Source: a virus (taxonomy: Duplodnaviria > Caudoviricetes). Taken from it: 49,452 nt of DNA. Shown piece after piece: positions 14,108-35,397 of the stretch. Positions within the stretch are counted from its first letter, which is position 1, and the number at the start of each line of letters is the position of its first letter. Under the pieces are notes generated by a model that was not told the origin of the DNA, did no database searches, and worked only from the letters and a program-made list of their open reading frames with translations. The position numbers were made by a program, and so were the translations under genes. The stretch covers positions 1 to 49,452 of the IMG/VR virus record IMGVR_UViG_3300011437_000004. The stretch is one strand, 5' to 3'.

Positions 14108-14171
14108 TCTTTCTTGGACCGCGCTACTTCTGCCTCAACGCGCGCTTGTCGGCTTAACCGAATCCGGCCCT
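14108..14171 (+). repeat. Dispersed repeat, copy A (fills the gap upstream of the portal gene)
   Basis: 14127-14171 is the exact reverse complement of 29166-29210 (45/45) and is similar to 28871-28935 and 41066-41111. Confidence 0.9.
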
Positions 14172-14427
14172 AGTCCCGTACCGTATCATCTTCCCATCCA
14201 TCAAGCACACAGGACCCGCGGAAGCCGCAGCTATCTCCTGGGCAATCAACGATGGGCAAAACACGCCCCTGCTTTCTAACTTCATGCTTGCTAAAAACGG
14301 ATCCCATCAGGCACACTTCCATACCACACTCTGGGCAGGTCATCGCCACGCGTTTCTGGCGCTTCGCTGTTTCGTACTTTCGCCAGTGTGTTCTCGAAAC
14401 TATGTACAGACAGACACTCCTGTTCAT
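14170..14427 (-). CDS. Small Zn-ribbon-like protein
   Basis: 85 aa with CPEC...CPGDSC cysteine pairs. Confidence 0.6.
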   Translation of the reverse strand: MNRSVCLYIVSRTHWRKYETAKRQKRVAMTCPECGMEVCLMGSVFSKHEVRKQGRVLPIVDCPGDSCGFRGSCVLDGWEDDTVRD

Positions 14428-18834: not shown

Positions 18835-19212
18835 TGTCACCATTTTTGGAATGGCGCAGGGGGGTACCATAAACGGTTACGAGGTAAGTACTTAACGGAG
18901 GGGGGGGAGGGGGGGGATAAGCGGCAGGATGTCGCAGTGGGTGAACGCAGGTTGCCAGGGCCAGCTATATTAACGGCAAAACGGTAAGTGGAGGGGTTTA
19001 GGTTTTCGTACAGCGGAACTGTCGTATGTATCGATGTATGCTTAATATATAGTAGATAAGTACGTATTTTAATTTATATATATACAGTAGTGGTAAAACG
19101 GTGTAGCTAAAACGGGCGGGGTAGGACTGTCCCCCCCCTCCCCCCCCCTTGCTAAGTGGTTGCAGTAAAACGGGTTATGGGAGGACCCTGCGCAAATCCA
19201 AAAATGGTGACA
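18835..19212. repeat. Large imperfect inverted repeat around an AT-rich core (candidate origin, terminus or packaging site)
   Basis: TGTCACCATTTTTGGA (18835-18850) vs TCCAAAAATGGTGACA (19197-19212); inner ends G8AG8 (18900-18916) vs C8TC9 (19131-19148); several AAACGG copies. Confidence 0.8.
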
Positions 19213-19665: not shown

Positions 19666-19695
19666 TTGACACGCCCCTACGCAAGCCGATAGAGT
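19666..19695 (+). promoter_or_regulatory. Sigma70-type early promoter with -10 overlapped by TAGAGTCTA
   Basis: TTGACA-18 nt-TAGAGT; A/T tracts upstream; shares GCGCAAATTATTT and GCCGATA with the 22.4-kb promoter. Confidence 0.65.
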
Positions 19696-19742
19696 CTACA
19701 TCGTACCGTTCTCTAACACTCTCTAACACAAAGGAATTGACA

Positions 19743-20786
19743 ATGAAAAAACCACTATTTGCCCCGACCGTACCGACCGTACCGTCCGAACCACCCCCTC
19801 CCCCCGTTGACCACATCCCGCTACCATGGCGTACCGGTCATGACATCGACGCCGCGCTCACCGCGCTCAGGTCCGTACTGTCCGCCCCCCCAGCCGCATC
19901 CGTTGACCGTGACACCGTATTATCACTCATACGCTCTGAGTTATCCGCCATATCGGCGCCCCGCTCCCTCACCGTGACCGTCAAAAACGCCCCCCCCGTC
20001 ACTGTCGAGTGTGCGCATCCCCTCCTACCCACACTGATTCGCGTCGCGTACGTGAAGCTGCCCGTTGGCCATTGCGCCAACATGCTGCTAATCGGCCCGT
20101 CCGGCTGCGGAAAAACCACAATTGTTGCTCACCTAGCGCAGGCGTTGGCGCGCCCGTTTACGTGTCTCTCCCTTAGTGGTGGTCGCTCCGAGGGATCATT
20201 GCTAGGCCGCTATCTCCCCATCGGCACTAGCGGCGCCGGCTCATGGGACTATGTCCGTGCTGCATTCGTTGCCGCCTACTCATCCGGCCATGTCATCCTA
20301 CTCGATGAGCTAGACGCAGCCGATGAAAATGTATTGCTGTGTCTAAATTCAGCGCTGTCCAACGGCTCACTGTACCTAACCGACGCTGCCGGCACCGCAA
20401 TCCCGCGCCATCCCGACACCGTCATCGTCGCCGCCGCTAACACGTACGGATCTGGCGCAGACCGCATCTATGTAGGCCGCAACCAATTGGACGGCGCTAC
20501 CCTTGACCGTTTCTCTGCCGCCACGTTCATCGTTGACTACTCCCCCGAAATAGAAACCGCTATCGGCAATCCGCAGCTATTACAGTGGGCATGGCCATTG
20601 CGCGCCAAAGTCGCATTGCACAAGATCCGCCAAGTCATTAGCACGCGCTACATCGCCGATGCATCGGCCCTGATGTCCGCCGAAGTCTACACTCTCGCCG
20701 ACGCTCAGCGCTCCCTACTCTGCCGCTGGTCCCCCGAGGAGCTGTCCACATTAGGCATCCAGTGCCCGGAGGCTGGTGCCGAATGA
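19743..20786 (+). CDS. MoxR/CbbQ-type AAA+ ATPase (phage CobS-like)
   Basis: GPSGCGKT, LLDELDAA, AANTYGSG, GRNQLDGATLDRF; ATG after AAGGAATTGAC. Confidence 0.85.
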   Translation: MKKPLFAPTVPTVPSEPPPPPVDHIPLPWRTGHDIDAALTALRSVLSAPPAASVDRDTVLSLIRSELSAISAPRSLTVTVKNAPPVTVECAHPLLPTLIRVAYVKLPVGHCANMLLIGPSGCGKTTIVAHLAQALARPFTCLSLSGGRSEGSLLGRYLPIGTSGAGSWDYVRAAFVAAYSSGHVILLDELDAADENVLLCLNSALSNGSLYLTDAAGTAIPRHPDTVIVAAANTYGSGADRIYVGRNQLDGATLDRFSAATFIVDYSPEIETAIGNPQLLQWAWPLRAKVALHKIRQVISTRYIADASALMSAEVYTLADAQRSLLCRWSPEELSTLGIQCPEAGAE

Positions 20787-21679
20787 GCCGAAAAAACACC
20801 ACAACGACCGAGTACGGTCTGCAATTCGCGCGCGTAGGTGGACGCATCGCCATAACGGGCGCATTTGATGCCGCGCTATCCTACGCGCAACACCACTACG
20901 CGATGCATCCTCGCCTAGACTCTGAATGTCCGTTCCGCCGGTACCGCTCTGGCGTCCCGCACGAACGCGATGCATTCTACGGCGGCCCCTACGCCGAAGC
21001 GCTCACCCGTACCGCATGGCCAGAAGGCTTGGAATTGCTAGCAAAAATGCCGCTCGTAGCGCCCGATGTGCCCGTATCTATCAGGCGCAAACCGCGCTAC
21101 GGCCCCGATGGTGACGAACTGTGTAGTGACAGACTCTATGATGGCCGTTTGGGCGCCGCATGGTCGTCCCTACACCGTGCTACTCGCGCCGGTTCCCCCA
21201 TCGTCACCCTGGCCATCGATCTATTCGCCGGTGCCACTCAACCCGCGTCGGAGCTGATTTATCGCGGCATCGCCGCCGTACGCGCCGTTGACGCATTGGA
21301 GACTGCCGGATACCGCGTCGAACTGTATGTGTGCAAGCACACTAACTTGGACCCGTGCGAAGTACCCACAACCGTTGTGCTCCGCGTCAAAGCCGCCAAC
21401 GAGTCGTTGAACGTTGACCGCGTACTATTCGCATGCGCGCACCCATCATCATTGCGATTCGTCATTTTCTCGCTGCTAACTTCCGTTTTCACGCCCGTAG
21501 ACTCCATTTCCGAACGCATCGGCATTCCCGACGAGTGTACCATCGACATGGTCGCCACCGCCTCCAGCGTCCGTCCCGATTACGTAGTTCCCGGTAGCAC
21601 ACTAGCCGTTCACGATGCAGTCATCGAAACCCAAAACATAGCCACCAGGATTACAGGAGTAACCCGCAATGCCCGCTAA
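20783..21679 (+). CDS. vWA-like (CobT-like) partner of the AAA ATPase
   Basis: ATGA-coupled to the ATPase; RGIAAVRAVDALETAGYRVEL motif of phage vWA partners; MIDAS looks degenerate. Confidence 0.6.
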   Translation: MSRKNTTTTEYGLQFARVGGRIAITGAFDAALSYAQHHYAMHPRLDSECPFRRYRSGVPHERDAFYGGPYAEALTRTAWPEGLELLAKMPLVAPDVPVSIRRKPRYGPDGDELCSDRLYDGRLGAAWSSLHRATRAGSPIVTLAIDLFAGATQPASELIYRGIAAVRAVDALETAGYRVELYVCKHTNLDPCEVPTTVVLRVKAANESLNVDRVLFACAHPSSLRFVIFSLLTSVFTPVDSISERIGIPDECTIDMVATASSVRPDYVVPGSTLAVHDAVIETQNIATRITGVTRNAR

Positions 21680-22301
21680 TACCACATTAGACCGACTACA
21701 GTCTCAGATCGACGCCCGCAAGGCCGTCGGATACCACAGTACCGAATGTGACTGCGCGCGCCGCGGCGAGTACGGTACATTCGATTTTTGGCTATCGCGC
21801 GGCCTATCTGTAATGCGCGGAAGCACATCCTTTTGCGTCCCCGGCTTGGTGCCTAACTCTGATTTTGTCTTCTGTCGCTGCCTAGTATCCGACCAGAGGC
21901 GCAACCCATGCCCGTGGCAACCGCCCCCCCAATGGATATCTGTAAACGAGCGCAACGGTCGCCCCGTCGTCAAGCGCTCTGGGTCCAATGGCCGTTCCCG
22001 CAAGCCCCACCCCGCCCCCACCACAGCCGGGCCAAGCCCCGTGCTTACCCCCATGCTTGCCGCCATCGCCAAAGCGCTGGGCAACGCCCATTGGTACAAC
22101 GGATATCTTGAAAGCCGCATCCTCCCGATGATTGAGGAAGCCTACCAGTCTCTATCACCCGGTGACGCGTCAACGTTCGTTTTCCGCCCGTCCCCCCCGT
22201 TGTCCATCATTCACGACCTAAAAAAGGCCAATGTTGCGCACCTGTTACTTAACGACGTTGAAAGTCCCGACAGCGTTTTGATCGCCAAAGTAATCGGCTA
22301 G
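21669..22301 (+). CDS. Hypothetical protein
   Basis: 210 aa, AGGAG RBS, Cys-containing N-terminal half. Confidence 0.7.
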   Translation: MPANTTLDRLQSQIDARKAVGYHSTECDCARRGEYGTFDFWLSRGLSVMRGSTSFCVPGLVPNSDFVFCRCLVSDQRRNPCPWQPPPQWISVNERNGRPVVKRSGSNGRSRKPHPAPTTAGPSPVLTPMLAAIAKALGNAHWYNGYLESRILPMIEEAYQSLSPGDASTFVFRPSPPLSIIHDLKKANVAHLLLNDVESPDSVLIAKVIG

Positions 22302-22332
22302 GTCCTTTGCCCAAAGCCGTTTACAAAAAATA

Positions 22333-22364
22333 GGGGCGTACCGTTGCTGGTCGCCCCATCTTTT
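22333..22364 (+). terminator. Probable intrinsic terminator
   Basis: GGGGCG..ACC/GGT..CGCCCC stem followed by ATCTTTT; an upstream A-run suggests bidirectional use. Confidence 0.55.
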
Positions 22365-22376
22365 AGCGCAAATTAT

Positions 22377-22405
22377 TTGACAGACCCTCCCCTTGCCGAT
22401 ATATT
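22377..22405 (+). promoter_or_regulatory. Sigma70-type promoter
   Basis: TTGACA-17 nt-TATATT. Confidence 0.75.
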
Positions 22406-22469
22406 ACTATTGTGGTAGTCGCGACCTACACAACATCGTAGGCCGCGCTACATCTTGGAGAATTGACCC

Positions 22470-23024
22470 ATGAAAGCCACCGAATTCCGTGACCTCCGAC
22501 TAAATAACTTAGTTCAATTCTTGTCCGAACGCTCCCCCACCAAAGAGCGCAAGGCACTTCAAAAAGCCTACGCCAAAAGCAAAAGCGCCAAGGGCAGTGC
22601 CACACACCGTCACACCGCATGGCCTAACTTCGCCTACCATCTACAGTTTGGCAAACACCTTGGCCCCTACGCTTCCGCATTCGCACCCGAAAGCCAATGC
22701 ATCGCCAACGTGCAAGCGCTGCTAGTGAATGTAATCCTTTGTGGCCATAGTGCTGTAAAGGTCGCTTCGTGGCGCGCCGCCCGCGGCCTAGCCAACACCA
22801 TATCCAAAAAGTATAATTGCGTCGGCGCCTCCACCGTCGCTGCCTACATCGCGCAATCCATGCTCAACCGCAAGGGTTATGAGTGTGAGTACATCAGCGT
22901 CGTTCACGCAGCCATGTGCTGCTATCCCCTGTCAGAGCGTGACACAACCGAAAAAATGCATGCCATTTACACTACGTTTGCAGTCATTCTCACGGAGTAT
23001 TTAACCGTTGCCCCCAAAAGATAA
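22470..23024 (+). CDS. Hypothetical protein
   Basis: 184 aa; ATG after GGAGAATTGAC. Confidence 0.75.
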   Translation: MKATEFRDLRLNNLVQFLSERSPTKERKALQKAYAKSKSAKGSATHRHTAWPNFAYHLQFGKHLGPYASAFAPESQCIANVQALLVNVILCGHSAVKVASWRAARGLANTISKKYNCVGASTVAAYIAQSMLNRKGYECEYISVVHAAMCCYPLSERDTTEKMHAIYTTFAVILTEYLTVAPKR

Positions 23025-23117
23025 GATATTCTCCGCTGCCGTTCTGTTACTATGTATAATTCTGTCCGCTGCCGTGTTGCTGTTCGCGCCCGGCTGCCTT
23101 TAGAAAGGAATTGACCC

Positions 23118-23582
23118 ATGTCCGTAGACAATTTTGACGGCCTTGACTCCCCCAATGAATCCGTTCGCAGAGCTGAGTTTGTTCGCCTATGTGAGGCCCG
23201 CGCCCAATGGCTGCTTGCACACCCTCATACTCTGGACATGTTCTCTCGCGCCCAAAACACTATCCGTTTACTGCGTGAAGCATTTCGCTCCCCCAACCCT
23301 CAACTGGAAGCAATCCCATTTGACGACCCATCATCCCCCGTTGGCGTCAGCATGCTGCTCACAGTCAACATCGAAAAAGAAAACTATATTGGCTGCATTT
23401 CCGTGGGCGTCATCCAATGCGAGCAGATGGACCGCGACTGCATGCAACGCGTCATGCCCGGCGCTGCCTGCTACAGCCCCGAGTCCGAGAAGCAACACCT
23501 ATTTTCAAACATCCTCAGCGAAGTACGCGACGCCGCCGCCCTTGCCCGCGACGCCGCCGCCTCCCGTTCCTCCTCCAACTGA
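23118..23582 (+). CDS. Hypothetical protein
   Basis: 154 aa; ATG after AAGGAATTGAC. Confidence 0.75.
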   Translation: MSVDNFDGLDSPNESVRRAEFVRLCEARAQWLLAHPHTLDMFSRAQNTIRLLREAFRSPNPQLEAIPFDDPSSPVGVSMLLTVNIEKENYIGCISVGVIQCEQMDRDCMQRVMPGAACYSPESEKQHLFSNILSEVRDAAALARDAAASRSSSN

Positions 23583-23596
23583 AAGGACCGATTACT

Positions 23597-24442
23597 ATGA
23601 TTATTCCACGATCCGTGTTGAACATCACCGCCATCGCCGCCAAAGAGCCGTCCCGCTACGCCGTCGACGCCGTCCAGTTCACCCGCGATGCCTATCACCC
23701 CGCCACCCCCACCGCTCACCCCCTCTGCCACGCCGCTACCACCAACGGCTACAGTGCAATAGAGGTTAGCTGGTGTGACCATGCCGCCCGTCAGTCCCCT
23801 TCCCACCACCCCGAGGGCGCCGGCAACATAATCGTTGTGCCAAACGCTTGCTTCCGCCCCCTCATCTCGGCCAAAGTCCTCAACGCTGTGAAAAAGCACA
23901 TCCCCAAGCGCCCGTTCCGTGACCACCTTCACCCCACCAACCCCGTCACCGTCGTCACCATCGATGAGCACTCGCTGTCCAATCCCAACGCCGATGGCGT
24001 CCACCTCCAAGCCGTCGTCTCTGACGGCAGCCTCTCTAATACCCATCAGCTCTACATACCAACAGAAGAGCCCGGCGCCACGTTCCCAAAGCTGGACGAT
24101 CTGTTTGATGCCGCGGCCCAGAACCAAACCGTATCGTTGTGTGTGAACGCCCGCCTGCTAAGCACACTATTAGACTCTATTGACAAAGTCGCTACCCAAG
24201 ATGGAGACTCCTCCGGCGCCGTCGTTGAACTGTGTGTCCCATTGGAATCGCCCTGCGGCGCCACCCGCGCCAAGAACACCACCATTGTCATCAATCTGTT
24301 AGGAATCAATGGCGACTCATACACTATGCAACCTCCGTCCGTGGCCGTCCGCGCTGCCATCATGCCCATAGATAGTCCACGCGGCTCCGGTCCGGCTGCC
24401 CCCGCATGTGCCTGTACCTGCCCGCCGGAGCCAACCAAATGA
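23597..24442 (+). CDS. Sliding-clamp (DnaN)-like protein, degenerate
   Basis: Start MIIPRS; AAKEPSRYAVDAVQF...ATTNG...FPKLDDL...VNARLL...AAIMPI mirrors beta-clamp motifs. Confidence 0.5.
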   Translation: MIIPRSVLNITAIAAKEPSRYAVDAVQFTRDAYHPATPTAHPLCHAATTNGYSAIEVSWCDHAARQSPSHHPEGAGNIIVVPNACFRPLISAKVLNAVKKHIPKRPFRDHLHPTNPVTVVTIDEHSLSNPNADGVHLQAVVSDGSLSNTHQLYIPTEEPGATFPKLDDLFDAAAQNQTVSLCVNARLLSTLLDSIDKVATQDGDSSGAVVELCVPLESPCGATRAKNTTIVINLLGINGDSYTMQPPSVAVRAAIMPIDSPRGSGPAAPACACTCPPEPTK

Positions 24443-24741
24443 GAGTTCCCAAAACCGCGCCCAACTCCGGCCTGCGAAAAAGCCAGTACAAAGCAACCAT
24501 CCGCTTTGACGTAACTGTTGAAATGATGGAAGCCACCAACCACTGCGCCGCCGCCCACGGCATAGAAGTGGCATCCCTAGTGCGCATCGCCCTCGCCCAA
24601 AAGCTGTACGACCACACGGGCAACGATGCGTTCCTACGTGAAAGCGTCGCCCATGCTCGCATCGGGTCCACCCCCGTCCCTACGCCCGACCCCGTCCGTT
24701 CCTGCCACCGCCGCACCTACCCGGAGACCCCAAATGCGTAA
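24439..24741 (+). CDS. Ribbon-helix-helix-like DNA-binding protein
   Basis: ATIRFDVT strand followed by two helices (VASLVRIAL); ATGA-coupled. Confidence 0.5.
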   Translation: MRVPKTAPNSGLRKSQYKATIRFDVTVEMMEATNHCAAAHGIEVASLVRIALAQKLYDHTGNDAFLRESVAHARIGSTPVPTPDPVRSCHRRTYPETPNA

Positions 24742-25162
24742 AGAAATCCCCCGCATGTCGCTCACCCTCAAAGCGCTGCGTGAATTTAATAATTTCGCAA
24801 TAGACTCTATGCGACGTCTCGCCGAACAGGACGGCCTGCCCATCACCCACATCCGCCCGATGATGTCCCCGCACGGCGTTCTAAAATTTGCCCAAGAAGT
24901 GTTTCTATCCTGGTCCCTACGCCGCAACGCCGATGGCTCATGTGAGCTAGTGCCTCGCCGCTACGACGGCGTCCCCTCCAACGTCACCCCCCTCACCGTC
25001 GCCGACCTGGGCTATCTCTGCGGCATACCCGCCGGCGTGGCCCGCAACGCCATCCGCACCCTCAGCAGCGGCTTCGCGCCGCTCCGTGACGCCGCCCCCA
25101 TCCCCACCCTCCACCCCCCCACTTTTCTAGCCGAAGGGAGCCCCACTAATGACAAAACCTAA
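24734..25162 (+). CDS. Hypothetical protein, possible C-terminal HTH
   Basis: Start MRKEIPR after GGAG; LTVADLGYLCGIPAGVARNAI. Confidence 0.55.
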   Translation: MRKEIPRMSLTLKALREFNNFAIDSMRRLAEQDGLPITHIRPMMSPHGVLKFAQEVFLSWSLRRNADGSCELVPRRYDGVPSNVTPLTVADLGYLCGIPAGVARNAIRTLSSGFAPLRDAAPIPTLHPPTFLAEGSPTNDKT

Positions 25163-25165
25163 CTT

Positions 25166-25516
25166 CTAGGCGTTATCTTTAGATTTTAGAAATGTCAGAA
25201 TTAAACCCGCTTCAGCCACAATGGCCTGATTTGTCGGGTACGTTGGGGGCGACAACAGCCGTTCTCTTGTCGTAGTATTATACAGTGCCTCCGTTATCGC
25301 CTTCACCCGCAGCGCCACCGCCGCGACAGTCAGCCCGTCCAGCACTGTCCAAGCCCAAAGCGCCTCAGCCATCGTCTCAACCACACTATGCGCCGGAATC
25401 GTCCCCTGTACCGGAAGCTCCCCTCCCGTGTACCTGGTGCGCTCCGTGGCCACCCGCTTTGCCATCTCGTAGCACCACACCGCATGGTCCCGCCTCACCG
25501 ACCCATACTTAATCAT
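25166..25516 (-). CDS. Hypothetical protein
   Basis: 116 aa; last gene of a tightly packed minus-strand island. Confidence 0.65.
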   Translation of the reverse strand: MIKYGSVRRDHAVWCYEMAKRVATERTRYTGGELPVQGTIPAHSVVETMAEALWAWTVLDGLTVAAVALRVKAITEALYNTTTRERLLSPPTYPTNQAIVAEAGLILTFLKSKDNA

Positions 25517-25519
25517 AAC

Positions 25520-26152
25520 TCAAACCTCAAAACCCAGCGTTGCGTAATACTTCGCGACCAACAGCTCATTTGTCCCCCACGTCTCCTCAAAAAACATCGA
25601 CATAGGGTAATACGCAAACGACGTACTCAGCTCGCTGCTATCCTCATAGTAAAGAAAGGTTTCCGTGCCGCCGGACGTCCGGTGATAAACCTTGACCCGT
25701 ATTTGATGGCCCGTTGGACCGTTATCAACCCCTTTTTTCGCTTCCACCTGCCACACCATTTCCGACGCCGCGGCCACTTCAACGCCGTCCAAATCGCCCG
25801 CGAGCGTCGCGAAGGAGCCAAGAAAGTGCTCACTGTAGCTCATGGGGGGATCAGTATACGGCCCGTAGCTCAGGTCCAGTCGCCGATCCGCCTGTGTGGT
25901 GGACAGCCGGCCATACGTTCCAATATCCGGATGTGTCTGCCCATGCGCCCATCGCCGGATCGTAGTCCCCGGATCACCGAGGTCTCCACCTCTCGCCACG
26001 GGAATGACCCCTCGCGGCGCGATGACACCGCCAACCCTCCCGCCGCCCGTCCCCGGCACCTCCCCATCAATGAGCACGGCATCCGTCTGACACGTATGCG
26101 CTACAGACCCCACATTCGTAACGAGTCTCAACGTAATAGAATTAGTAGCCAC
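25520..26152 (-). CDS. Probable virion structural (beta-rich) protein
   Basis: 210 aa, GTG start abutting the previous stop. Confidence 0.6.
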   Translation of the reverse strand: MATNSITLRLVTNVGSVAHTCQTDAVLIDGEVPGTGGGRVGGVIAPRGVIPVARGGDLGDPGTTIRRWAHGQTHPDIGTYGRLSTTQADRRLDLSYGPYTDPPMSYSEHFLGSFATLAGDLDGVEVAAASEMVWQVEAKKGVDNGPTGHQIRVKVYHRTSGGTETFLYYEDSSELSTSFAYYPMSMFFEETWGTNELLVAKYYATLGFEV

Positions 26153-27055
26153 TCACACCGCCTCTGTGTGATACTCGACGCTCACCGAAAGTGTGCCGTC
26201 CGGATCATCGCATGTCACCGTAATGTCATCGCCGTTGGCGCCCGCAACGCCCTGGAATGTCACCACAAGGCCGGAACTCGGCGCCAGACCCGGATGCTTC
26301 GCAAGCCGCAAGCTCCCAATTTTCACCTCAACACTAATATAGACAGGTGTCGCGGGGTCGCTCCCGGCACCCAGGGTTATCTCGACCGACTTGATAACGG
26401 CACGCGTGCCTGCGCTGATCGCTTGCAGCACGGCAGCCGATTGAGCAGCTGTGTAGTCATTTGAAACAAGTGTATTGTTGGGGTGCCCCGCAATAAGCGC
26501 AGCGCCATAGCGTGTCATCAACTGGTCGGTACGATCTCCAGTCGCCACGCTCGTCGGCGTCGCCGCCGTCGCCACCGCGCGTCCGCCCACCTTAATCGGG
26601 TTCCCGGCATCCGCCGCATCGTGCGCCGTGGCTCCCACCACCTGCGCATTAAAGTTGCTCGCTGTATCTTGAGTCACCTTCCCAATAGCGTTCGTGCCTG
26701 CCGGCAACGCCGCATCAGTGGCCAGCGTCACCCTCTGCGTGTTCCCCGTCACCACGCCCGACCCACCCTGCACACCCGCCTGCCCCACTATAATGTTCGC
26801 CTTCGCACGGTCGCTCTCGTCCCAATCATCAACCACACTCAGGCTGGCCGCCGCCGCTGCCGTCGCGCTCGCCGTCGCCGCAAGATTCCCCCCCGTCTCC
26901 TGCGCAATGTTCCCCGTCACCGCGACCGTGCCCGTCACAGGCTGCGGCGTTGTCCCTGTCGGATCATTCCGAATCGGATTCGTCGCCGTCCCCAGCGACA
27001 CGCCATTATCATCAGTCAGATGCACCAATGGCTCTATGTGTTCTATGTCACCCAT
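26153..27055 (-). CDS. Probable tail/head fibre protein
   Basis: 300 aa, Ala/Thr/Gly-rich (PVTGTV, LPAGTNAIGKV, GATAHDAADAGNPIKVGG) with a C-terminal beta-sandwich-like domain. Confidence 0.55.
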   Translation of the reverse strand: MGDIEHIEPLVHLTDDNGVSLGTATNPIRNDPTGTTPQPVTGTVAVTGNIAQETGGNLAATASATAAAAASLSVVDDWDESDRAKANIIVGQAGVQGGSGVVTGNTQRVTLATDAALPAGTNAIGKVTQDTASNFNAQVVGATAHDAADAGNPIKVGGRAVATAATPTSVATGDRTDQLMTRYGAALIAGHPNNTLVSNDYTAAQSAAVLQAISAGTRAVIKSVEITLGAGSDPATPVYISVEVKIGSLRLAKHPGLAPSSGLVVTFQGVAGANGDDITVTCDDPDGTLSVSVEYHTEAV

Positions 27056-27060
27056 TGTTG

Positions 27061-27414
27061 TTACCCGGTCACCTCGCCAAACGTCGTAACATTCAGCTCG
27101 TTCCCCCCGTCCTCTTTGACCCTAAGTTCTTGCCCCGGATATAGGTCCAATCGCAGGCTCGACACCAACGGATTGCCAGGCGGCACCCTCACCTTCGTGA
27201 GCAGCGCCACACCGTTCGCCGCGTTTCCACTCCCGTCGCTCACCAACACCAAGTGCACGTACCTCATTGTGGCGACCTCTGGGTTATCAATCACAATGCT
27301 ATTAATTCTGTATGTGACACCCCGACCGGCCAGCACTAGTGAGTTGAACCCATCCCCACCCGCGATCGGGCTGCTATTGGTCACAATCCCCGCAATCGCC
27401 CTCCCTCCAGGCAT
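27061..27414 (-). CDS. Small beta-sandwich-like structural protein
   Basis: 117 aa, GAGGGAGG RBS; INSIVIDN...LDLYPGQELRV pattern. Confidence 0.6.
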   Translation of the reverse strand: MPGGRAIAGIVTNSSPIAGGDGFNSLVLAGRGVTYRINSIVIDNPEVATMRYVHLVLVSDGSGNAANGVALLTKVRVPPGNPLVSSLRLDLYPGQELRVKEDGGNELNVTTFGEVTG

Positions 27415-27451
27415 GTATCACCGTCCTCCCTCAACGCTCATACCCAAGAGC

Positions 27452-27835
27452 CTACGCCGACCCGTGACACGGCAGCCCGCGGACTACAATGTTGGTCGTA
27501 GTCGGCGCTGCCGCCGCCGGCCTGATCGCAAACTTCCCAATCTGCCACGTCCCATCCATCGCAATATCCATCGTGGTGTTGTTAGCTATGATAAAGTCAA
27601 ACAGGATGTCCGTCAGCTCCGTCACCGCATCCCCAAACACCGCCGTATCCAACAGCACCGCCCTCACCCGTATAATGCTCCCGCTCGTATTGCTTACAAA
27701 AAGCATCCTGCACTTGCACGGCATCGTGATCAGGCTGCTCACGTTCTGTAAGTAGCCCGCCGCCCCCGTCGTGCCCCTCAACACACTCGTAGGCGCCACT
27801 GTTTTAGATGTACTCAAAAACCCACCTCTGCCCAT
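27452..27835 (-). CDS. Small beta-sandwich-like protein, paralog of 27860-28201
   Basis: FLST...RMLFVSNTSGSIIRV...TNIVVRGL. Confidence 0.7.
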   Translation of the reverse strand: MGRGGFLSTSKTVAPTSVLRGTTGAAGYLQNVSSLITMPCKCRMLFVSNTSGSIIRVRAVLLDTAVFGDAVTELTDILFDFIIANNTTMDIAMDGTWQIGKFAIRPAAAAPTTTNIVVRGLPCHGSA

Positions 27836-27859
27836 TGTCCGCTCCCTTCTGTGTAGACT

Positions 27860-28201
27860 CTACCCGCTGACGCCCAGACCCACCACTGCAATGTTAGTCT
27901 CCGCTCCGTTAGACGCCTCTGTAAAGATCGCAATCCGATCCGTCTGCCTCGCACCATCGTGGCAAACGTCCACCATTCCCCCCACCGGAATGATCTCGTC
28001 ATACACGTTAACATCCGGTTCAAAAGACCCAAAGTCCCCATGCACCAGCACCTTGAGGATCCCATCGCTGTTATTCGTAACAAACACGGACCTCTGATAT
28101 CCACTGAACCGAAAAAAAGCCCGGTCCGTCAGACCCAGCGAGCCACTAACTAAAGTACCCTGCTGCGTCCGCTTCGTGCTCAAAAACGCATCTCTTGACA
28201 T
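27860..28201 (-). CDS. Small beta-sandwich-like protein, paralog of 27452-27835
   Basis: FLST...RSVFVTNNSDGILKV...TNIAVVGL. Confidence 0.7.
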   Translation of the reverse strand: MSRDAFLSTKRTQQGTLVSGSLGLTDRAFFRFSGYQRSVFVTNNSDGILKVLVHGDFGSFEPDVNVYDEIIPVGGMVDVCHDGARQTDRIAIFTEASNGAETNIAVVGLGVSG

Positions 28202-28223
28202 ACTGTTTGGCCCTCTCTATCCT
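28195..28223 (+). promoter_or_regulatory. Sigma70-type promoter for the polymerase operon
   Basis: TTGACA-17 nt-TATCCT; the -35 overlaps the start codon of the divergent gene. Confidence 0.6.
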
Positions 28224-28255
28224 GCCCGCCTCAACAACTGAAAAAGGAATTGACC

Positions 28256-30973
28256 ATGAACTACCCGCTAGTGGTCCTCAGCCCGTCCGCCGTTTCCCGC
28301 GACGCCTCCTGCTCCCGCTGTGACCTCGGCATCGCATCCCAACCCACCCTGCACCGCCAATCACTGTGTATTCCACTCCATCGGCACGGCGACTACAAGC
28401 CCTCCTCCATCGCCCTCCTCTGCATCGGCGAGGCTCCCGGCTCTGAAGAAGACGCGCAATGTGCTCCCTTCGTAGGCCCCTCCGGCCAAATCCTCACCGA
28501 CTGGCTGTCCCAATTTGCATCCCTCCCCATCACCATCTACGCCACCAACGCCGTTCGCTGCCGCCTCCCCACCAAGGCCAAACCTCGCCGCCCCATGTTC
28601 GACGCCTGCAATGCGTTCCTGGTCAGTGACCTCAAGCTGCTCCTCAGCGCACACCCCTCCGTCACCCTGCTACTTCTCGGCGCCACCACCGTAGAGTCCC
28701 TCCGTCTCGGCACAATGAAGAAAGACGCATTCCGCCGCCAAGGCCAGCCCGTGCTGATAAACGGCCTAGGCCCGTTCCCCACATATGCCACCTACCACCC
28801 CGCCGCCACCCTCCCCTCCCGCTCCCCCCATCTAGTTCACGCCGTCGCCGACCACTTGTCGCTACTATTCTCTTCCTTGGACCGCGCCGCTTCTGCTCCG
28901 GTAAAGAACTTGTCGGCTGAACCGAGTCCGGCCCTGTTCACACCACCCCGTGCCGTGCCCGTTATAAATGCACTGGCCGACCTGCATGGGCCCGTGCCGT
29001 CTCCCGTCCCGTCTGTGCTCGCTCTCGACATTGAGACATACGGTCTACTCGACACCGAGCCCGTTCAAACGGTCTACCACCCCGTCAAGTCCACGGCCAT
29101 TGACCGCCCCCGTTCACTGCTATCCACCGTCGCCATCGCTTGGCATCAGTACACGGGTCGGGAACAGGGCCGGATTCGGTTAAGCCGACAAGCGCGCGTT
29201 GAGGCAGAAGGCAGTGCGCTCAAAGCCCGCGTGTATGTTTGGTCCAAGCCCGTTGACCGTGCATCTCTGTACCAAGTCCTGCACCGTTTGCGTGCCAACC
29301 ACGGCACGCTGGTGCTCAAGAACGCCCTCTTTGACTTCTCTTACCTCCGTGCGTATCCTGAGTTCCGCGAGGTGCTGTGTCCCCCGTTAGTAATAGAAGA
29401 CGTAGAGGCGTGGAACACGCTGGCCAGTGATGTTCGTCCTGAGCGATCTCTAGAGGCCATCGCCCGTTTGCTGGGCCTGCTGCCTGAGCTTACAGACTCT
29501 AATCCCAAGGCCCGTAAATTTAAGCGATACCCATCAGCCTTCGACGGCGCTGCCCACCGCTACAATGCCACCGATGCACTCGTTACTCTCGCTGCTCGTG
29601 ACATACTGCGCGGGCAGTGCGATCCATTAGCGTTGACAGAGTACGCCCGCCGTTGGTTCAGTGAATCCATCTATTCATTTCTGCACATGCAAGAGGCTGG
29701 CATCTGTGTAGACCGCCGTGCTGTTGCGACCTTGAACGCATCGCTGCTGCTCAGGATGGCTGCCCATGCCAACCGATTCAAAGCGCTCACCGGATGTGCG
29801 CTGGCGGGCACAGGCAGCCGAGATCCGTTGCGAACGTTGGTGGCCAACGCGACCGCCGAGGCGTGCCTGCTGCGTCATCCTCAACTGGCCCGTTCGGATG
29901 TGGGTGGCATCATCAGCACGGGCGAGGACAATATAAAGCTCATTCTGGAACACCTGCCATCCGAGTCCGCTTACTATGAGTCCCTTGGCCTGCTTACTGC
30001 CCACCGTGCGCTGCAGAAAACCGTTGGCACACTGAAGGCGATTGCGTCGCCGGAGTCCAAGCACCGTTCCATCCGTGGCATCGTCTACCCTCAGTGGTAT
30101 CCGTTCCCAGGCGAGTATGGCCGCGCTTCCAATGCGACGGGCGGCGGTACTGTCCAGGGCCGTGCAACCGCAAAGGATCCAGCTCCACAGACGTGGCCGG
30201 AGGAAGTGCATAACTGCGTCAGCTCCCGTCACGGACGCCACGGCGTCGTGCTCATGTGGGACTTATCACAGATAGAGGTACGCCTTGCGGCCATGCTGTC
30301 CCGCGACTCACGCATGATCCAAGAGTACCGCGACGGGGTGGACCGCCATACGATGCGAGCAGTGGAGCTGTTTGGTGCTGATATCATTAGTCACCCACAG
30401 TTCCGTAGAGTCTATAGGCACGCGGGCAAGACGATGAACTTTCTAATCATCTACCGCGGCGGCGCTCGCCAGTTCCGTTTCACATTGCGTCGCGATGTGG
30501 GCGTGGACTTCCCGCTGGAACGCTGCCAAGAGATGATTGCCCTGTCCCGTGCCGCGTATCCTGAGCTGGATGCGTATCAGCAGGCGCTCATACGGCAGGT
30601 GACGCGGGACGGCTTCTTGGTCGAGCCCGTGCTGGGCTTCCGCCGCTGGTTCATCCGGTCCCAAGCGCTCAACGAACACGAATACGAAAGCACCATCGCG
30701 AATTTCCTAGTTCAGTCCACTGCCGCGTTGCTAATGCGCGATGTGCAACGGCGTGTCATTACCATGCTGCCGCCCGGCGCGTGCGTTTTCTTCAACGGCT
30801 ATGACTCGCTTGGAATTGATTGCCTTATAAGAGATTATGACAAAGCGCTAAATTCTTTGCGCATTTGCTTGACGGAATCCGGCTACCTTGCTAGATTACG
30901 GGCAGTGACGGGCGTCCACGATGTACCGATATTGGCCGAAGCCAAGGCTCGTTGCGGCGTCGATCCGAGCTAG
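28256..30973 (+). CDS. polA: Family A DNA polymerase with N-terminal family-4 uracil-DNA glycosylase and 3'-5' exonuclease domains
   Basis: UDG: CSRC, GEAPG..ED...PFVGPSG, TNAVRC, HPAA. Exo: LDIET, NALFD, YNATD. Pol: DLSQIEVR, KTMNFLIIY, VQSTAA, GYDS. Confidence 0.9.
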   Translation: MNYPLVVLSPSAVSRDASCSRCDLGIASQPTLHRQSLCIPLHRHGDYKPSSIALLCIGEAPGSEEDAQCAPFVGPSGQILTDWLSQFASLPITIYATNAVRCRLPTKAKPRRPMFDACNAFLVSDLKLLLSAHPSVTLLLLGATTVESLRLGTMKKDAFRRQGQPVLINGLGPFPTYATYHPAATLPSRSPHLVHAVADHLSLLFSSLDRAASAPVKNLSAEPSPALFTPPRAVPVINALADLHGPVPSPVPSVLALDIETYGLLDTEPVQTVYHPVKSTAIDRPRSLLSTVAIAWHQYTGREQGRIRLSRQARVEAEGSALKARVYVWSKPVDRASLYQVLHRLRANHGTLVLKNALFDFSYLRAYPEFREVLCPPLVIEDVEAWNTLASDVRPERSLEAIARLLGLLPELTDSNPKARKFKRYPSAFDGAAHRYNATDALVTLAARDILRGQCDPLALTEYARRWFSESIYSFLHMQEAGICVDRRAVATLNASLLLRMAAHANRFKALTGCALAGTGSRDPLRTLVANATAEACLLRHPQLARSDVGGIISTGEDNIKLILEHLPSESAYYESLGLLTAHRALQKTVGTLKAIASPESKHRSIRGIVYPQWYPFPGEYGRASNATGGGTVQGRATAKDPAPQTWPEEVHNCVSSRHGRHGVVLMWDLSQIEVRLAAMLSRDSRMIQEYRDGVDRHTMRAVELFGADIISHPQFRRVYRHAGKTMNFLIIYRGGARQFRFTLRRDVGVDFPLERCQEMIALSRAAYPELDAYQQALIRQVTRDGFLVEPVLGFRRWFIRSQALNEHEYESTIANFLVQSTAALLMRDVQRRVITMLPPGACVFFNGYDSLGIDCLIRDYDKALNSLRICLTESGYLARLRAVTGVHDVPILAEAKARCGVDPS
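28871..28942 (+). repeat. Dispersed repeat, copy C (UDG-exo linker of the polymerase)
   Basis: CTTGGACCGCGC..CTTCTGC...CTTGTCGGCTGAACCGAGTCCGGCCCT aligns with copy A over ~65 bp. Confidence 0.85.
29162..29210 (-). repeat. Dispersed repeat, copy B (inverted, inside the exonuclease domain)
   Basis: 29166-29210 is the exact reverse complement of 14127-14171. Confidence 0.9.
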
Positions 30974-30975
30974 TT

Positions 30976-31452
30976 ATGCCGATTGATCCGAGCCGAGTGG
31001 TGATTACAAGGACGCGAGGCCGGTCGCCGCATATGCGGGGCACTGGGCCAGGCATGATGCGCACGCCCAAAACAGATGGGACTGAAGCCTATATGCTGCC
31101 AGGACTGGAGAATCTAGGGTCCGTGCTGAGGGAGACCCGCGTGGCCCGTGCTATCCCGCAGCGCATACTGGCTGACACCGCGGGGATGCCTGTATCCGTG
31201 CTCTCATTGGTCGAACAGGGATCGCGCCGCCTCACCCCTCGTATGTATACGTTGCTGTGCCAAACGCTGGATCTGCCGCCCGAGGTGCCCATCCTGATTA
31301 CGTTGGCCGTGGGGCCCGATTGGCCCGGCTTGCGTACTATTCAAAAGCAGTTGGTAAAAAAGTATATAGCGGCGGGGCTGGCGGTGGAGACGATGGCGTC
31401 CCACCCCGTCCGTCGCAAACACCCCAACAAACCCCGCAATGAGTTTTATTGA
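30976..31452 (+). CDS. XRE/Cro-C1 HTH transcriptional regulator
   Basis: LRETRVARAIPQRILADTAGMPVSVLSLVEQG. Confidence 0.75.
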   Translation: MPIDPSRVVITRTRGRSPHMRGTGPGMMRTPKTDGTEAYMLPGLENLGSVLRETRVARAIPQRILADTAGMPVSVLSLVEQGSRRLTPRMYTLLCQTLDLPPEVPILITLAVGPDWPGLRTIQKQLVKKYIAAGLAVETMASHPVRRKHPNKPRNEFY

Positions 31453-31500
31453 AAAGAAGAAGTGCTCTGCGTCAATGTGTCGCCGCGTTGCCGATGTTGA

Positions 31501-32172
31501 GTGTGTTGTTCTGAGCGCCAGCAGCCGCGATATAGACCTCTTATGAAAGAGCTGCCCCGTACAGTCACGATGCTCATAGATACGCGGGAGAAGACCCCGT
31601 TTGCTTTCCCTGACATCATCGCAGTGGAGTGGGGCGGCAAGGACTACCCGGTGACCGTACGATCCGAGAGGGCGAAGCTGGACTGCGGTGACTACACACT
31701 TAAAAGCTATGAGCACATTGCGGCGCTGGAACGTAAGAGTTCACTTGACGGCGAGCTGTCCGACAATATTACGACGGCGGACCGTGCCCGTTTTGTTCGT
31801 GCTCTGTCTCGGTTGGCGGGCAGCTGCCTGTACCCGTATCTGATGCTGGAGAGCGGGGGCGGGGCGTGGTGGACCGAGGGAAAAACCAATAGCGATGCCG
31901 GCATGACGATGGATCATCTGGGCCAATTGGTGTCGCAGCTAAGGCTGAACTTGATTTTCAACGCCAGCAGGCCCACGACCGTACACGCAAAGCGGCGCAT
32001 GGGCGAGTTCGTACTGCGGCTGATGATCGGCCACATGCTGGTGCTGAGTAACGAAGGAAAGGAATTGACCAATGTCAGAACACCCGACCAACCTCAACGG
32101 GCAAGAAACTGTCCCTCCCGTTACGGTGGCAAGCCCGTCGACCCCAAGCCGCTGGCGTCCGGCAACAGCTAA
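31501..32172 (+). CDS. ERCC4/XPF-family nuclease (start may be 31543)
   Basis: IDTREK, LDCGDY and ERKS motifs. Confidence 0.85.
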   Translation: MCCSERQQPRYRPLMKELPRTVTMLIDTREKTPFAFPDIIAVEWGGKDYPVTVRSERAKLDCGDYTLKSYEHIAALERKSSLDGELSDNITTADRARFVRALSRLAGSCLYPYLMLESGGGAWWTEGKTNSDAGMTMDHLGQLVSQLRLNLIFNASRPTTVHAKRRMGEFVLRLMIGHMLVLSNEGKELTNVRTPDQPQRARNCPSRYGGKPVDPKPLASGNS

Positions 32173-33415
32173 TCAGCTAGCGCCGTTGGGTTTCGTGCTG
32201 ACGCCGGCCCCGGATGCCCTGATGACATCCCCGTGCCCCACCGTGCCGTGCGATCGACCTGAACTGAAGCACCTGTTCAAGCACAGCCTACCAGTCATTA
32301 ACAACCCGCCTGTGCGGTCGTCCGCCGTCAAGACATACCACGAATGCACTCGCAGGTGGTTCTATGAGTACGGGCTGGGTCTTGTGCCGTTGGGCTATTG
32401 GTCCCCCGGTATGCGACAAGGCACGCTGTTCCACAAGGCGATGGAGTGGCTGTCCAAAGGCATGAGCACGGAACAAATCCACAATCACTTGCACGAATAC
32501 CAAAACAGCGTTGCGCTGCGGTTGATGGCCGCTCAGACACCCGATGGCCGTTTGCCTGACGGCACGTTTACGGAGACGCGGCTGGACCAATTAGAGGTAA
32601 TGACACATAAAGCTGCGGCGATGGCTGAGTACATCCGTGCCCGTGATGCGCTGCCCAAAGATATCATACCGCTGGCCGTTGAGAAACACACGGCGTGCGT
32701 GCTTTCCACTCCTTCGGGACGATCGGTTACGCTGGCGGGCCGTATTGACGTGCTAGGGCAGTCGGCCAACGACTCCAACGAGATCTGGCTGCTGGACTAC
32801 AAAACTACGGGCGAGTCCCCGTCCCTTGCTGCAAGGGCCTTGGAGTTCGATGCTCAGATACACCAGCACCGTTTGCTGGCGATGGCCGCATTCCCCGACA
32901 AGCATGTAATGGGGTCGTATCATCTGTTGGTCAAACCTGCTGGGATTAAGTATTGCCCAAAGACCAAAGACAAGGGCGGCATCCAAAGTTACTTTACCCG
33001 CGTGCTCGAATGGTACGCGCAGCGGGAGCTGGAGGGTCAGGCGGTGCCCGAAAAGGCACCCATCGCAACGTCAAAGATTACCTATACTGCGTCCGTGCCC
33101 GAGCCCGACATCCTTGACCGCATCATAGAGGTTTCACACCAGCCGCGCATGCATGGTACAAACGGGCACGAAGACATTCGACGCATGTTCCCCCGCGTAG
33201 CCAACCGTTACGTGTGCGGCGGCATTGCGGGACGCAAGGCGTGTCCGTTTCTAAAGATGTGCAACACCGAAGCGCCACACGAATGGGCGGCTTTGATTCG
33301 AGAAGAGGGAATGCAGCACGCTGCCCTGTATGAACGCTGCGACCCGTGGGTCAAGGCCCGCGGCGGCGACGACTCCGGCGACTCCGACGAACCCGAAAGC
33401 ATTGATGGTGAATAG
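32072..33415 (+). CDS. PD-(D/E)XK exonuclease (Cas4/RecB-like)
   Basis: SSAVKTYHEC, GTLFH, VEK, GRID, DYKT and C-terminal Cys cluster; ATG after AAGGAATTGAC. Confidence 0.8.
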   Translation: MSEHPTNLNGQETVPPVTVASPSTPSRWRPATANQLAPLGFVLTPAPDALMTSPCPTVPCDRPELKHLFKHSLPVINNPPVRSSAVKTYHECTRRWFYEYGLGLVPLGYWSPGMRQGTLFHKAMEWLSKGMSTEQIHNHLHEYQNSVALRLMAAQTPDGRLPDGTFTETRLDQLEVMTHKAAAMAEYIRARDALPKDIIPLAVEKHTACVLSTPSGRSVTLAGRIDVLGQSANDSNEIWLLDYKTTGESPSLAARALEFDAQIHQHRLLAMAAFPDKHVMGSYHLLVKPAGIKYCPKTKDKGGIQSYFTRVLEWYAQRELEGQAVPEKAPIATSKITYTASVPEPDILDRIIEVSHQPRMHGTNGHEDIRRMFPRVANRYVCGGIAGRKACPFLKMCNTEAPHEWAALIREEGMQHAALYERCDPWVKARGGDDSGDSDEPESIDGE

Positions 33416-33441
33416 TTCGTTTAACAAAAAGGAATTGACCA

Positions 33442-34449
33442 ATGACTCAAACAATCACTACCGGCAGCGCGCCCGCTGCACCCTCCGTGCGACCAGCTCT
33501 GCCTCCCCCCCAGCCCCGTCCACAACCGCTGCCGCAGCCGCCGTTGGCACAGCCACAACCGTCGATGCTGGACCCGTATGCATCACAGTTTGGGGAGGGT
33601 GTGCGAGTATTCGGACCGCCTCCCGCCGGACGTCTTAGAGTCTATCTTCGGGCCAAGGTCGGTGGCGGCAAAACCCACTTCTGCCTCTCGGCGCCGCGAT
33701 CGCTGGTGCTGGACTTTGAGAACAAAGCGCTGGCCATTCCATATCGCGGACCTGGCACATCTGTGTATTACTTTTCAGCATGGGAACGCTATGAAGAACT
33801 GCTGAACCGTGTCATTGCGGACGGGCTGGCCGGACGCCGCTACTTCGACACTGTGGTCTTTGACCCCATGCCATCCGTGGTCTCGCTGGTGCGGGCGTCG
33901 CTGACTGCCCAGTACCGTGCCATGAAGTACTTGGACGCCCACGAAGACATAACTAACTATGGACAAAAAGGGTCGGGGTGGGACATTGTCAACGGCAAAA
34001 TCAACAGACTTCTAACCGATGTGTACAATGCGGGGTATGGGTGGATCGCTACATCTCACATCATGCCCGTTTGGAAAAAGGGGTCCGATGGCCGCGACAC
34101 TGCCGTCCAGGATACCGTGCTCAATGCGGGCGTGGAGCGAAACCTATACAAAGATGCAGACTACACCGGCATCATTCTGAACGAAACGGACGTAACCACC
34201 ACGGGCGGCGGGGTTACAGGGACGCAGATGATACAGGGCCGGCCCGTGTCCATCCGCTCTCCAGTCAAGACCGAAATACGAAAACGGTTCACGCTAGGCT
34301 TCTTGCCCTCAGACCCAATGATACCTGTGCGGGTGTCGGTGCCGCTGAGCACCAACCCCATTGACATAACAGATCAACACGGAATGGATTTGTTTCACAG
34401 AGTCTACGATGACAGCGTTACAGCGTTTGTAGCTTCGTCACGGAGTTAA
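33442..34449 (+). CDS. Sak4-like/AAA_24 recombination ATPase
   Basis: GGGKT, LVLDFE, DTVVFD; located between exonuclease and SSB-like gene. Confidence 0.75.
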   Translation: MTQTITTGSAPAAPSVRPALPPPQPRPQPLPQPPLAQPQPSMLDPYASQFGEGVRVFGPPPAGRLRVYLRAKVGGGKTHFCLSAPRSLVLDFENKALAIPYRGPGTSVYYFSAWERYEELLNRVIADGLAGRRYFDTVVFDPMPSVVSLVRASLTAQYRAMKYLDAHEDITNYGQKGSGWDIVNGKINRLLTDVYNAGYGWIATSHIMPVWKKGSDGRDTAVQDTVLNAGVERNLYKDADYTGIILNETDVTTTGGGVTGTQMIQGRPVSIRSPVKTEIRKRFTLGFLPSDPMIPVRVSVPLSTNPIDITDQHGMDLFHRVYDDSVTAFVASSRS

Positions 34450-34489: not shown

Positions 34490-35020
34490 ATGCCAGTAAT
34501 ATTTGACCAAAACGCATTTATCGCAGCGGCGGCCCAACGCCACGAAGTCCTGGCCCAGGGCAAACGGGACGCCGTGCAATCATGGACGCCGCCTGAGGGC
34601 ACCTACATCGGCGAGTTGTTGGGCGGTCAGGTCGGCGTGATTACCAACGCAACGGGCGCATCGGACCCGGCCATCTGGCTGACGTTCCGCATTGGTGACG
34701 CCGGTCCCCACGAAGGCCGCACCGTTCGCATCATGTTCACGCTGGGCGAGATGGGCGCTGCCGGATTCGTGCGTGCTGCTAATGTAATTTTGGACAGCCA
34801 AGTGCCGGACGATCCGATTGCAGTAGCCAAAGCTATCCTGTCCCACTGTGAGCGTGGCGAGTGGTACGTGCTGGCGGCAGTGACCCGCAAGAAGGATCCA
34901 ACCCAGCGCAACGTGTACATCAACAAGAAGTGCGATATGCTGCCCCCTGGCAGCGAAGGCGAGCATCAGACTCTTACAGCCAACGACGTAGGCGCCATGC
35001 CCGCGGGCGTTCTCAAGTAG
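34490..35020 (+). CDS. Probable ssDNA-binding protein (DUF669/gp2.5-like)
   Basis: WTPPEGTY motif, OB-like beta pattern, synteny with Sak4; GAGGAG RBS. Confidence 0.55.
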
Positions 35021-35041
35021 CGTCCGCGGCTGACACGGAAT

Positions 35042-35182
35042 GGTCGCCCCAGGCATGCAGTGTTTGTCAATTCCGCTGTGTGTCCTGCGGGCGACCGGCC
35101 CTTGCTTCTTTTCTCCTCAGGGCGCGGGGGCGCTTCGGCCACCTTATGCTTGACAGCCGAGCGCTCCCCGCCGAGGAGCAAG
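35042..35182 (+). ncRNA. Two-hairpin structured RNA upstream of csrA (candidate sRNA)
   Basis: Hairpin 35042-35096 (~21 bp with G-U pairs, loop TTTGTCAATTC) and a second hairpin CTCCTC..TCGGC/GCCGA..GAGGAG. Confidence 0.55.
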
Positions 35183-35205
35183 TACACAATAACGAAAGGA
35201 TTCGT

Positions 35206-35397
35206 ATGTTAGTTCTGTCCCGGAAACGCAATGAAAGCATCCTCATCGACGGCGATATCAAAGTAGTGGTGCTTGGAATCCGCGGAGACAAAGTACGGCT
35301 GGGCATCACGGCCCCCCGCTCCATTCCCGTTGTTCGCAAGGAAATCACTGACGTCATGGCCGCCAAACCGAGGCCGGAAGGAAACATGCAACAATGA
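35206..35397 (+). CDS. csrA: Carbon storage regulator CsrA/RsmA
   Basis: [47 protein letters not shown], 63 aa. Confidence 0.92.

Follow-up and report, generated by a model that had tools for sequence, protein, structure and literature searches.

Why should six genes in the early region of one phage carry the same eight letters one or two nucleotides before their start codons? The question arises in the virus record IMGVR_UViG_3300011437_000004 (Duplodnaviria; Caudoviricetes), analysed here over its full 49,452 nt (the window), which corresponds to the whole phage genome with a 123-nt terminal repeat. The original prediction, made from the sequence alone, was that these boxes form a shared RNA operator for an antisense RNA, CsrA or a RegA/RegB-like factor. 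We find that the exact complement of the box lies in the loop of a strong predicted RNA hairpin, between an SSB-like open reading frame (ORF) and a phage csrA gene, and hold with moderate confidence that a C4-like loop-antisense RNA represses a six-gene early regulon, with CsrA at most a helper.

Start-site boxes and a complementary predicted loop

Exact plus-strand matches to GAATTGAC were confirmed at all six predicted positions (Table 1), and five of the six boxes read AGGAATTGAC, as had been claimed, within the common context AAAGGAATTGAC. The gene labels likewise agreed with Pfam and PHROGs matches (AAA_5 ATPase, UDG and PolA, PD-(D/E)XK exonuclease, AAA_24/Sak4-like), and three boxes do lie first after sigma70-like sites, 39, 55 and 24 nt downstream of P1, P2 and P3 respectively, these sites being consensus matches only (13 such pattern matches overall, against 7.8 expected). 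Counted on both strands, the motif occurs seven times in the window against 1.10 expected, a total reached in none of 100 shuffles. Each of the six plus-strand copies precedes an ATG, by 1 nt at 19734 and 28247 and by 2 nt at the other four (random-position probability 0.03), so that the motif is not common away from starts. Since the exact plus-strand copies all stand at an ATG, whereas none of the 15 copies with one mismatch has an ATG within 4 nt, the box is all-or-none. It is found at 6 of 29 plus-strand starts and at 0 of 15 minus-strand (late) starts, in a list made by hand in which a few starts are off by at least one base; the plus strand carries replication and recombination genes, the minus strand the terminase and likely structural genes.

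Judged against genomes of the probable host phylum, Planctomycetota, the box is not the generic start context of the probable host, because AGGAATTGAC followed by ATG after 1-2 nt occurs five times in 23.2 Mb (five planctomycete genomes) and five times in the 49-kb phage, i.e. is ~470-fold rarer in the former. Other viral contigs with the box before an ATG (26 loci, and 118 loci from 10 of 64 collection parts) have a single copy each. Neither outcome named in the original prediction as refuting it, a motif equally common away from start codons or a generic host initiation context, was thus obtained.

Table 1. Coordinates of the boxes, the hairpin element with its flanking genes, and the promoter-like sites in the window.
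Feature	Position	Strand	Description
P1, sigma70-like	19666..19695	+	TTGACA-18-TAGAGT; consensus match only
Box 1	19734..19741	+	AAAG-GAATTGAC-A-ATG; before AAA ATPase 19743-20786, first gene after P1; 11 bp to loop
P2, sigma70-like	22377..22405	+	TTGACA-17-TATATT; consensus match only
Box 2	22460..22467	+	GGA-GAATTGAC-CC-ATG; before ORF 22470-23024, first gene after P2; 8 bp to loop
Box 3	23108..23115	+	before ORF 23118-23582; 9 bp to loop
P3, sigma70-like	28195..28223	+	TTGACA-17-TATCCT; consensus match only
Box 4	28247..28254	+	before UDG-PolA 28256-30973, first gene after P3; 9 bp to loop
Box 5	32062..32069	+	before PD-(D/E)XK exonuclease 32072-33415; 9 bp to loop
Box 6	33432..33439	+	before Sak4-like ATPase 33442-34449; 9 bp to loop
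SSB-like ORF	34490..35020	+	follows Sak4; label from position, no Pfam or PHROG match
Predicted RNA hairpin	35042..35096	+	22 bp, three G-U pairs in upper stem
Loop	35063..35073	+	11 nt, UUUGUCAAUUC; 35066-35073 is the exact box complement
Second folded domain (predicted)	35101..35182	+	apex UUGACA 35150-35155; also UUCUCCUC / GAGGAG pair
csrA ribosome-binding site	35192..35205	+	small predicted hairpin ACGAA-AGGA-UUCGU; CsrA-type site
Phage csrA	35206..35397	+	63 amino acids; Pfam CsrA, E 1.5e-21

The seventh copy of GAATTGAC, absent from the original list, is on the minus strand at 35066-35073, where the plus-strand transcript reads GUCAAUUC, within the 185-nt gap between the SSB-like ORF and csrA. 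The surrounding hairpin is predicted at -36.6 kcal/mol (z -5.69, with 0 of 200 shuffles as stable), its loop bases being unpaired with a probability of 0.87-1.0 in a 350-nt context, and when both strands were scanned in 64-nt windows this hairpin and the next domain ranked as the two most stable of the plus strand. Owing to its G-U pairs the plus strand folds better than the minus strand (-35.1 vs -27.9 kcal/mol in a 64-nt window), a bias that points to RNA and not to a DNA cruciform. The chance of this particular 8-mer falling wholly within a strong loop on either strand, estimated as slots x ~1.3e-5, is ~4e-3 for hairpins of -18 or better (302 slots) and ~1e-4 for those of -30 or better (10 slots).

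The eight positions that are invariant among the boxes line up with the 3' 8 nt of the loop, and box 2 stops matching precisely where the loop ends, with a different base in the adjoining position. Predicted loop-box duplexes extend over 8-11 bp, at -9.7 to -14.7 kcal/mol before the cost of loop closure. Of 32 candidate starts in its own region the loop matches six, compared with 0-1 per locus in 82 others. In a survey of 673 hairpins whose loops have at least 7 nt (82 loci), only this loop and two from cluster K mycobacteriophages match at least six starts. No repeated complement of second-domain sequences was found at the six box starts.

A candidate antisense RNA and its counterparts in other phages

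We propose that a folded element of ~140 nt (35042-35182) would be made within the P3 early operon and persist as a stable piece; P3 likely drives the operon to which the hairpin belongs, as far as its extent can be judged from gene order. As the element accumulated, its loop would pair over 8-11 bp with the boxes, between ribosome-binding site and AUG, acting in trans on the P1 and P2 operons and in cis or in trans on PolA, exonuclease and Sak4, and this pairing would block translation of the six early genes together. The lead genes of the three early operons, together with the replication/recombination core, would thus come under a negative feedback that sets in with delay. Phage CsrA may promote the pairing or act as a co-repressor on the AGGA half of the box, but would not be the source of specificity. 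If this is correct, a single RNA loop and a tag of 8 nt would suffice to time a whole early regulon, no protein repressor being needed.

A precedent is provided by C4, the loops of which pair with their targets and partly cover ribosome-binding sites (PMC5320573). As with the C4 antisense RNA of phages P1 and P7, the predicted fold would expose in a loop the complement of repeated boxes overlapping the ribosome-binding site, and the RNA would lie inside a longer transcript, from which C4 is released by RNase P. Unlike C4, the phage element has no Rfam match (neither a tRNA nor an Rfam RNA was found in the window at E<=1, nor an Rfam RNA in 34900-35300 at E<=10), comprises one loop and one box in place of a' and b', and has six targets spread over 13.7 kb in three operons, which are replication genes and not an antirepressor operon. 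The CI RNA of phage P4 is a close system grouped with C4. For the part that CsrA might play, the SR1/ahrC pair of B. subtilis, in which CsrA serves as a small RNA (sRNA) chaperone (PMC6546359), offers an analogy: GGA motifs occur both on the candidate RNA (three) and on its targets, a CsrA homologue is available, and by this analogy the phage protein might chaperone loop pairing. Unlike SR1/ahrC, the CsrA here is phage-encoded, and a similar layout occurs without CsrA in a distant relative, L334.

Single-protein locus searches with Sak4 and PolA returned no close relatives, the nearest proteins being 27-39% identical. We compared 80 loci with related PolA or Sak4 (25-35% protein identity), many of which keep the order PolA, ERCC4, exonuclease, Sak4, SSB, some sharing PolA only, and hairpins directly after SSB proved common among them. 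No post-SSB loop of 6-18 nt matched more than two starts in 46 relatives, in a first screen restricted to loops of up to 16-18 nt; this limit, too small for the loop of L334, was lifted later for sequence after SSB alone. The hairpin that follows SSB in L334 (z -3.84) has a larger and different loop, which is complementary to the exonuclease start (10 nt) and the Sak4 start (9 nt) of L334 itself, followed by one mismatch and three pairs. In a syntenic test, defined as the longest complementary run between the accessible post-SSB sequence and both the exonuclease and the Sak4 starts, 47 of 81 loci (window included) had all parts, L103 being excluded by hand as not syntenic; runs of at least 9 nt for both genes were obtained in two of the 47, the window and L334, vs 0 of 2162 cross pairs. 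A near-identical variant (L188, 99.35% identical) has the same hairpin and the same boxes in the three it covers, and the near-identical variants held no variation usable for testing box against loop.

Two other candidates were rejected: a 'AGGAATCC' match in L056/L063, which lay in a weak fold within apparent coding sequence, and an anti-Shine-Dalgarno (anti-SD) loop in L058 that matched five of its own starts and was unspecific, matching 3-4 starts in five other loci. The latter locus has a 550-nt non-coding stretch after SSB (L058:15914-16470) ending in a 13-bp hairpin with the anti-SD loop. In one clade (L083, L085, L087, L088, L092, L095, L099, L104) the SSB stop is closely followed by a conserved structured element, a candidate non-coding RNA (ncRNA) motif, which contains a hairpin with a CCACAA loop and, in the members inspected, also a GGGTGCATC block.

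A further parallel is found in the start-associated sequences (SAS) of cluster K mycobacteriophages and cluster EF Microbacterium phages (PMC3203893, PMC7302621, PMC11373665, PMC12699233). Pope et al. (2011) described the SAS boxes, together with four K1 phages having a single reverse copy away from any start (reverse sites are listed in their Fig. S3); papers of 2024 and 2025 call the role of SAS unknown or unverified, and the words 'antisense' and 'hairpin' are absent from the available text of the 2025 paper. Like SAS, the box is private to the phage, repeated, asymmetric, in one orientation a few nucleotides before starts, confined to non-structural genes, and accompanied by a single reverse copy off the starts. 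It differs from the 13-bp GGGATAGGAGCCC-type consensus, spaced by 3-7 nt, in being an unrelated 8-nt GAATTGAC spaced by 1-2 nt, in covering mostly spacer, in numbering six copies vs 11-19, in a probable host of the phylum Planctomycetota and in the adjacent csrA. No upstream ESAS (extended SAS) inverted repeats were seen by eye in the box flanks or in the repeat list, no motif search having been run.

In Anaya and Angelica the reverse SAS copy forms the 10-nt loop of a ~20-bp hairpin, intergenic in the former and overlapping an annotated hypothetical gene in the latter; the hairpin locus is present in 193 Mycobacterium phage records. The exact anti-SAS loop occurs in 3 of 14 aligned cluster K phages, i.e. 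Anaya, Angelica and LilPharaoh, on a different stem in LilPharaoh, so that the loop layout recurs in cluster K but is not obligatory for SAS. The role of SAS has been open since 2011. For an antisense answer the phage box is a clean case, because ribosome pairing cannot account for the invariance of a sequence that falls mostly in the spacer; with it the layout would no longer be limited to actinophages but would reach a phage whose host is probably a planctomycete. Neither an anti-SAS hairpin nor this box/loop layout was found in print by a literature search of main texts, few of them from subscription journals, and the available text of a 2025 review of phage sRNAs (PMC12197685) lists no such regulon.

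Two structured regions were seen alongside. Downstream of a TTGACG...TAGACT promoter-like site, L106:34740-34990 and its cluster K homologues have an intergenic element of several hairpins; present in the 14 aligned phages and often overlapped by an annotated hypothetical gene, it is likely an unannotated ncRNA. In AnnaSerena the exonuclease, recombinase and gp46 genes are followed by a 487-nt gap (L212:22061-22548) that contains very long hairpins but no anti-SAS copy.

Several points weigh against the antisense proposal. Boxes, spacing and complement are directly observed and the fold is predicted, and from these we infer expression, release, pairing and repression; that the effect would be repression is suggested by position only. 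A loop duplex of 8-9 bp is short, and a consensus scan found neither a promoter nor a terminator belonging to the hairpin element itself. The box is not conserved in the homologous genomes compared: GAATTGAC at several starts is kept by none of 79 screened relatives, nor by L334. Since, in addition, the syntenic test is negative in 45 of the 47 loci, the case for covariation depends on a single relative, which was noticed before the test was defined, which is not the nearest branch, and whose anti-SD-rich loop overlaps generic Shine-Dalgarno (SD) sequence (cross maximum 8 nt). The branch nearest to the window is L027 (support 0.91-0.92, at a distance of ~3 substitutions per site), with a strong post-SSB structure in which an anti-SD arm is predicted to pair in cis with the ribosome-binding site of the next gene, suggesting that the loop element arose from a cis structure of this kind. 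Of the remaining aligned cluster K phages, three have a partial loop (a pyrimidine-rich variant) and eight have none, with SAS boxes unchanged in Ekdilam, Phrank, Yuna, TM4 and Pixie, and no reverse SAS copy (up to two mismatches) was present in TM4 (right arm) or AnnaSerena; such boxes can therefore exist without a loop partner.

Competing explanations

The box could instead be an extended SD sequence or initiation enhancer, the hairpin being a later addition or unrelated, which we regard as unlikely. Five boxes pair with the canonical 16S tail over 6+3 nt (-7.5 to -8.0 kcal/mol), through AAAGGA and UGA around a 2-nt mismatch, three plain AAGGA starts being weaker (-5.7 to -6.3 kcal/mol); planctomycete tails are canonical, and most cluster K phages keep SAS boxes without an anti-loop. 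However, the A, U and final C of the box are unpaired with the tail yet invariant in 6/6, near-miss copies are lacking, and pairing would improve if GG replaced AU. The rarity of the pattern in the five planctomycete genomes argues in the same direction, and the exact complement in a strong loop is left unexplained. An altered host anti-SD, also considered, was not supported, as the canonical tail is the match that recurs among those listed (150 of 164, for 121 genomes), and one genome with a GGATCAATTCC match has a canonical tail too.

Direct recognition by a protein, either the phage CsrA or an unrecognised RegA- or RegB-like factor, with a hairpin that is incidental or regulates csrA only, is in our judgement quite improbable. 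CsrA binds GGA near SD sequences (PMC6546359, PMC7652899), csrA lies directly downstream of the hairpin, and ANGGAN is present in five boxes. Against the consensus RUACARGGAUGU (PMC7652899), with GGA in a short hairpin loop, the boxes share only this ANGGAN (5/6), and the invariant AUUGAC that follows GA falls outside it; AAGGAA starts without the box exist in the phage, and a protein decoy would be expected to copy the box and not its complement. CsrA was found in none of the L334, L027 and L058 genomes (0/3, one incomplete), nor was a RegA or RegB family among the 49 ORFs scanned with Pfam and PHROGs, most of which match no family at all. The idea of a shared RNA operator has thus acquired a candidate partner in its antisense form, the loop hairpin, whereas its CsrA form is disfavoured by AUUGAC and by L334, and its RegA/RegB form found no counterpart.

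Equally improbable is a sensor, in which the element, as a leader, would detect untranslated early mRNAs through its loop and switch csrA, the off state being an internal pairing. The element does form the 5' leader of csrA, and the UUGACA of the second domain is a predicted 6-bp partner of the loop (-6.4 kcal/mol). The cis pairing in L027 keeps this reading alive, and a U-tract follows the post-SSB hairpin of L334. Against it, the csrA SD is paired to neither folded domain in the predicted folds, and triggers need not sit at a fixed 1-2 nt before AUG. Sensing and repression are not mutually exclusive, and csrA itself is probably autoregulated via the small hairpin predicted over its own SD.

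The context AAAGGAATTGAC of five boxes also occurs in planctomycete 16S rRNA, 622 nt before the 3' tail, in a stretch that we take to be 913-924 in E. coli numbering. With this stretch the loop and its closing base are predicted to form 12 pairs (three G-U, -14.1 kcal/mol), which beats five of the six boxes. Positions 921-923 of 16S pair with 1532-1534 in the inactive 30S subunit (PMC11182017). If the box began as an extended SD, complementarity to the tail would account for 9 of the 12 shared letters, and the remaining three may be chance. An RNA with two targets, whose loop would shut off the six mRNAs and also stall 30S maturation by pairing over 12 nt with host pre-16S 916-927, a stretch that is universally conserved, with boxes as rRNA mimics and CsrA as chaperone, is very unlikely. 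That host 16S (~916 to 927) in immature 30S is the main target, the mRNA boxes mimicking it, we likewise find very unlikely, in spite of the stronger duplex: the shared letters largely follow from the tail, the loop of L334 is a different sequence, and the match was noticed post hoc. The 916-927 region is, moreover, paired in the mature 30S.

Finally, oriented stoperator-like DNA sites for a phage repressor, e.g. the helix-turn-helix protein encoded at 30976-31452, are also very unlikely. In their favour, such a gene is present, the boxes are asymmetric, co-oriented and adjoin starts, and cluster A stoperators, oriented 13-bp DNA sites for a repressor, act on transcription. Against them, neither the fixed 1-2 nt gap to ATG nor a reverse copy in a strand-biased, G-U-containing RNA loop is expected of DNA sites, and the boxes are not the -35 elements of the three promoter-like sites.

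Probable host and further genome features

The phage host is probably a planctomycete, because Planctomycetota names stand on 72 of the best 80 of 138 confirmed genome hits to the phage CsrA, a single gene. Seven of the eight runs sharing phage DNA are freshwater-sediment metagenomes, more than half of the words being found in only two, and none of the eight is RNA. No further contig of the same phage was found besides the window, and neither an integrase nor a repressor-immunity module was recognised in it.

Around the early promoter-like sites, a hairpin (22426-22453) lies at the 5' end of the putative P2 transcript, immediately ahead of box 2. At these positions the variants of runs X2-X4 have 28 extra letters, and X2 and X3 have an in-frame 261-nt deletion in ORF 22470. 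A minus-strand ORF block (25166-28201) within the plus-strand early region begins just upstream of P3. Fourteen copies of a near-palindrome, TAGAGTCT / AGACTCTA, a candidate operator or modification site, occur at 4001, 19511, 19527, 19690, 21131, 24172, 24802, 27855, 29494, 30406, 33636, 37892, 40025 and 44898, one of them overlapping the P1 -10.

In the gap between the divergent halves of the genome, inverted 83-nt arms (18835-18917 / 19130-19212) flank a 212-nt AT-rich core, an arrangement like that of an origin or packaging site. A repeat family of 31-58 nt, 80-94% alike and in both orientations, is found upstream of a putative portal gene (14127-14184), as an inverted pair 222 nt apart inside PolA (28909-28939, 29153-29210) and in ORF 41010-41615 (41044-41099); its members may be late promoters or binding sites for a protein, set within coding DNA. 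Two genes contain Ala-rich coding repeats (36727-36864 and 40403-40468) with a perfect 35-nt inverted match between them.

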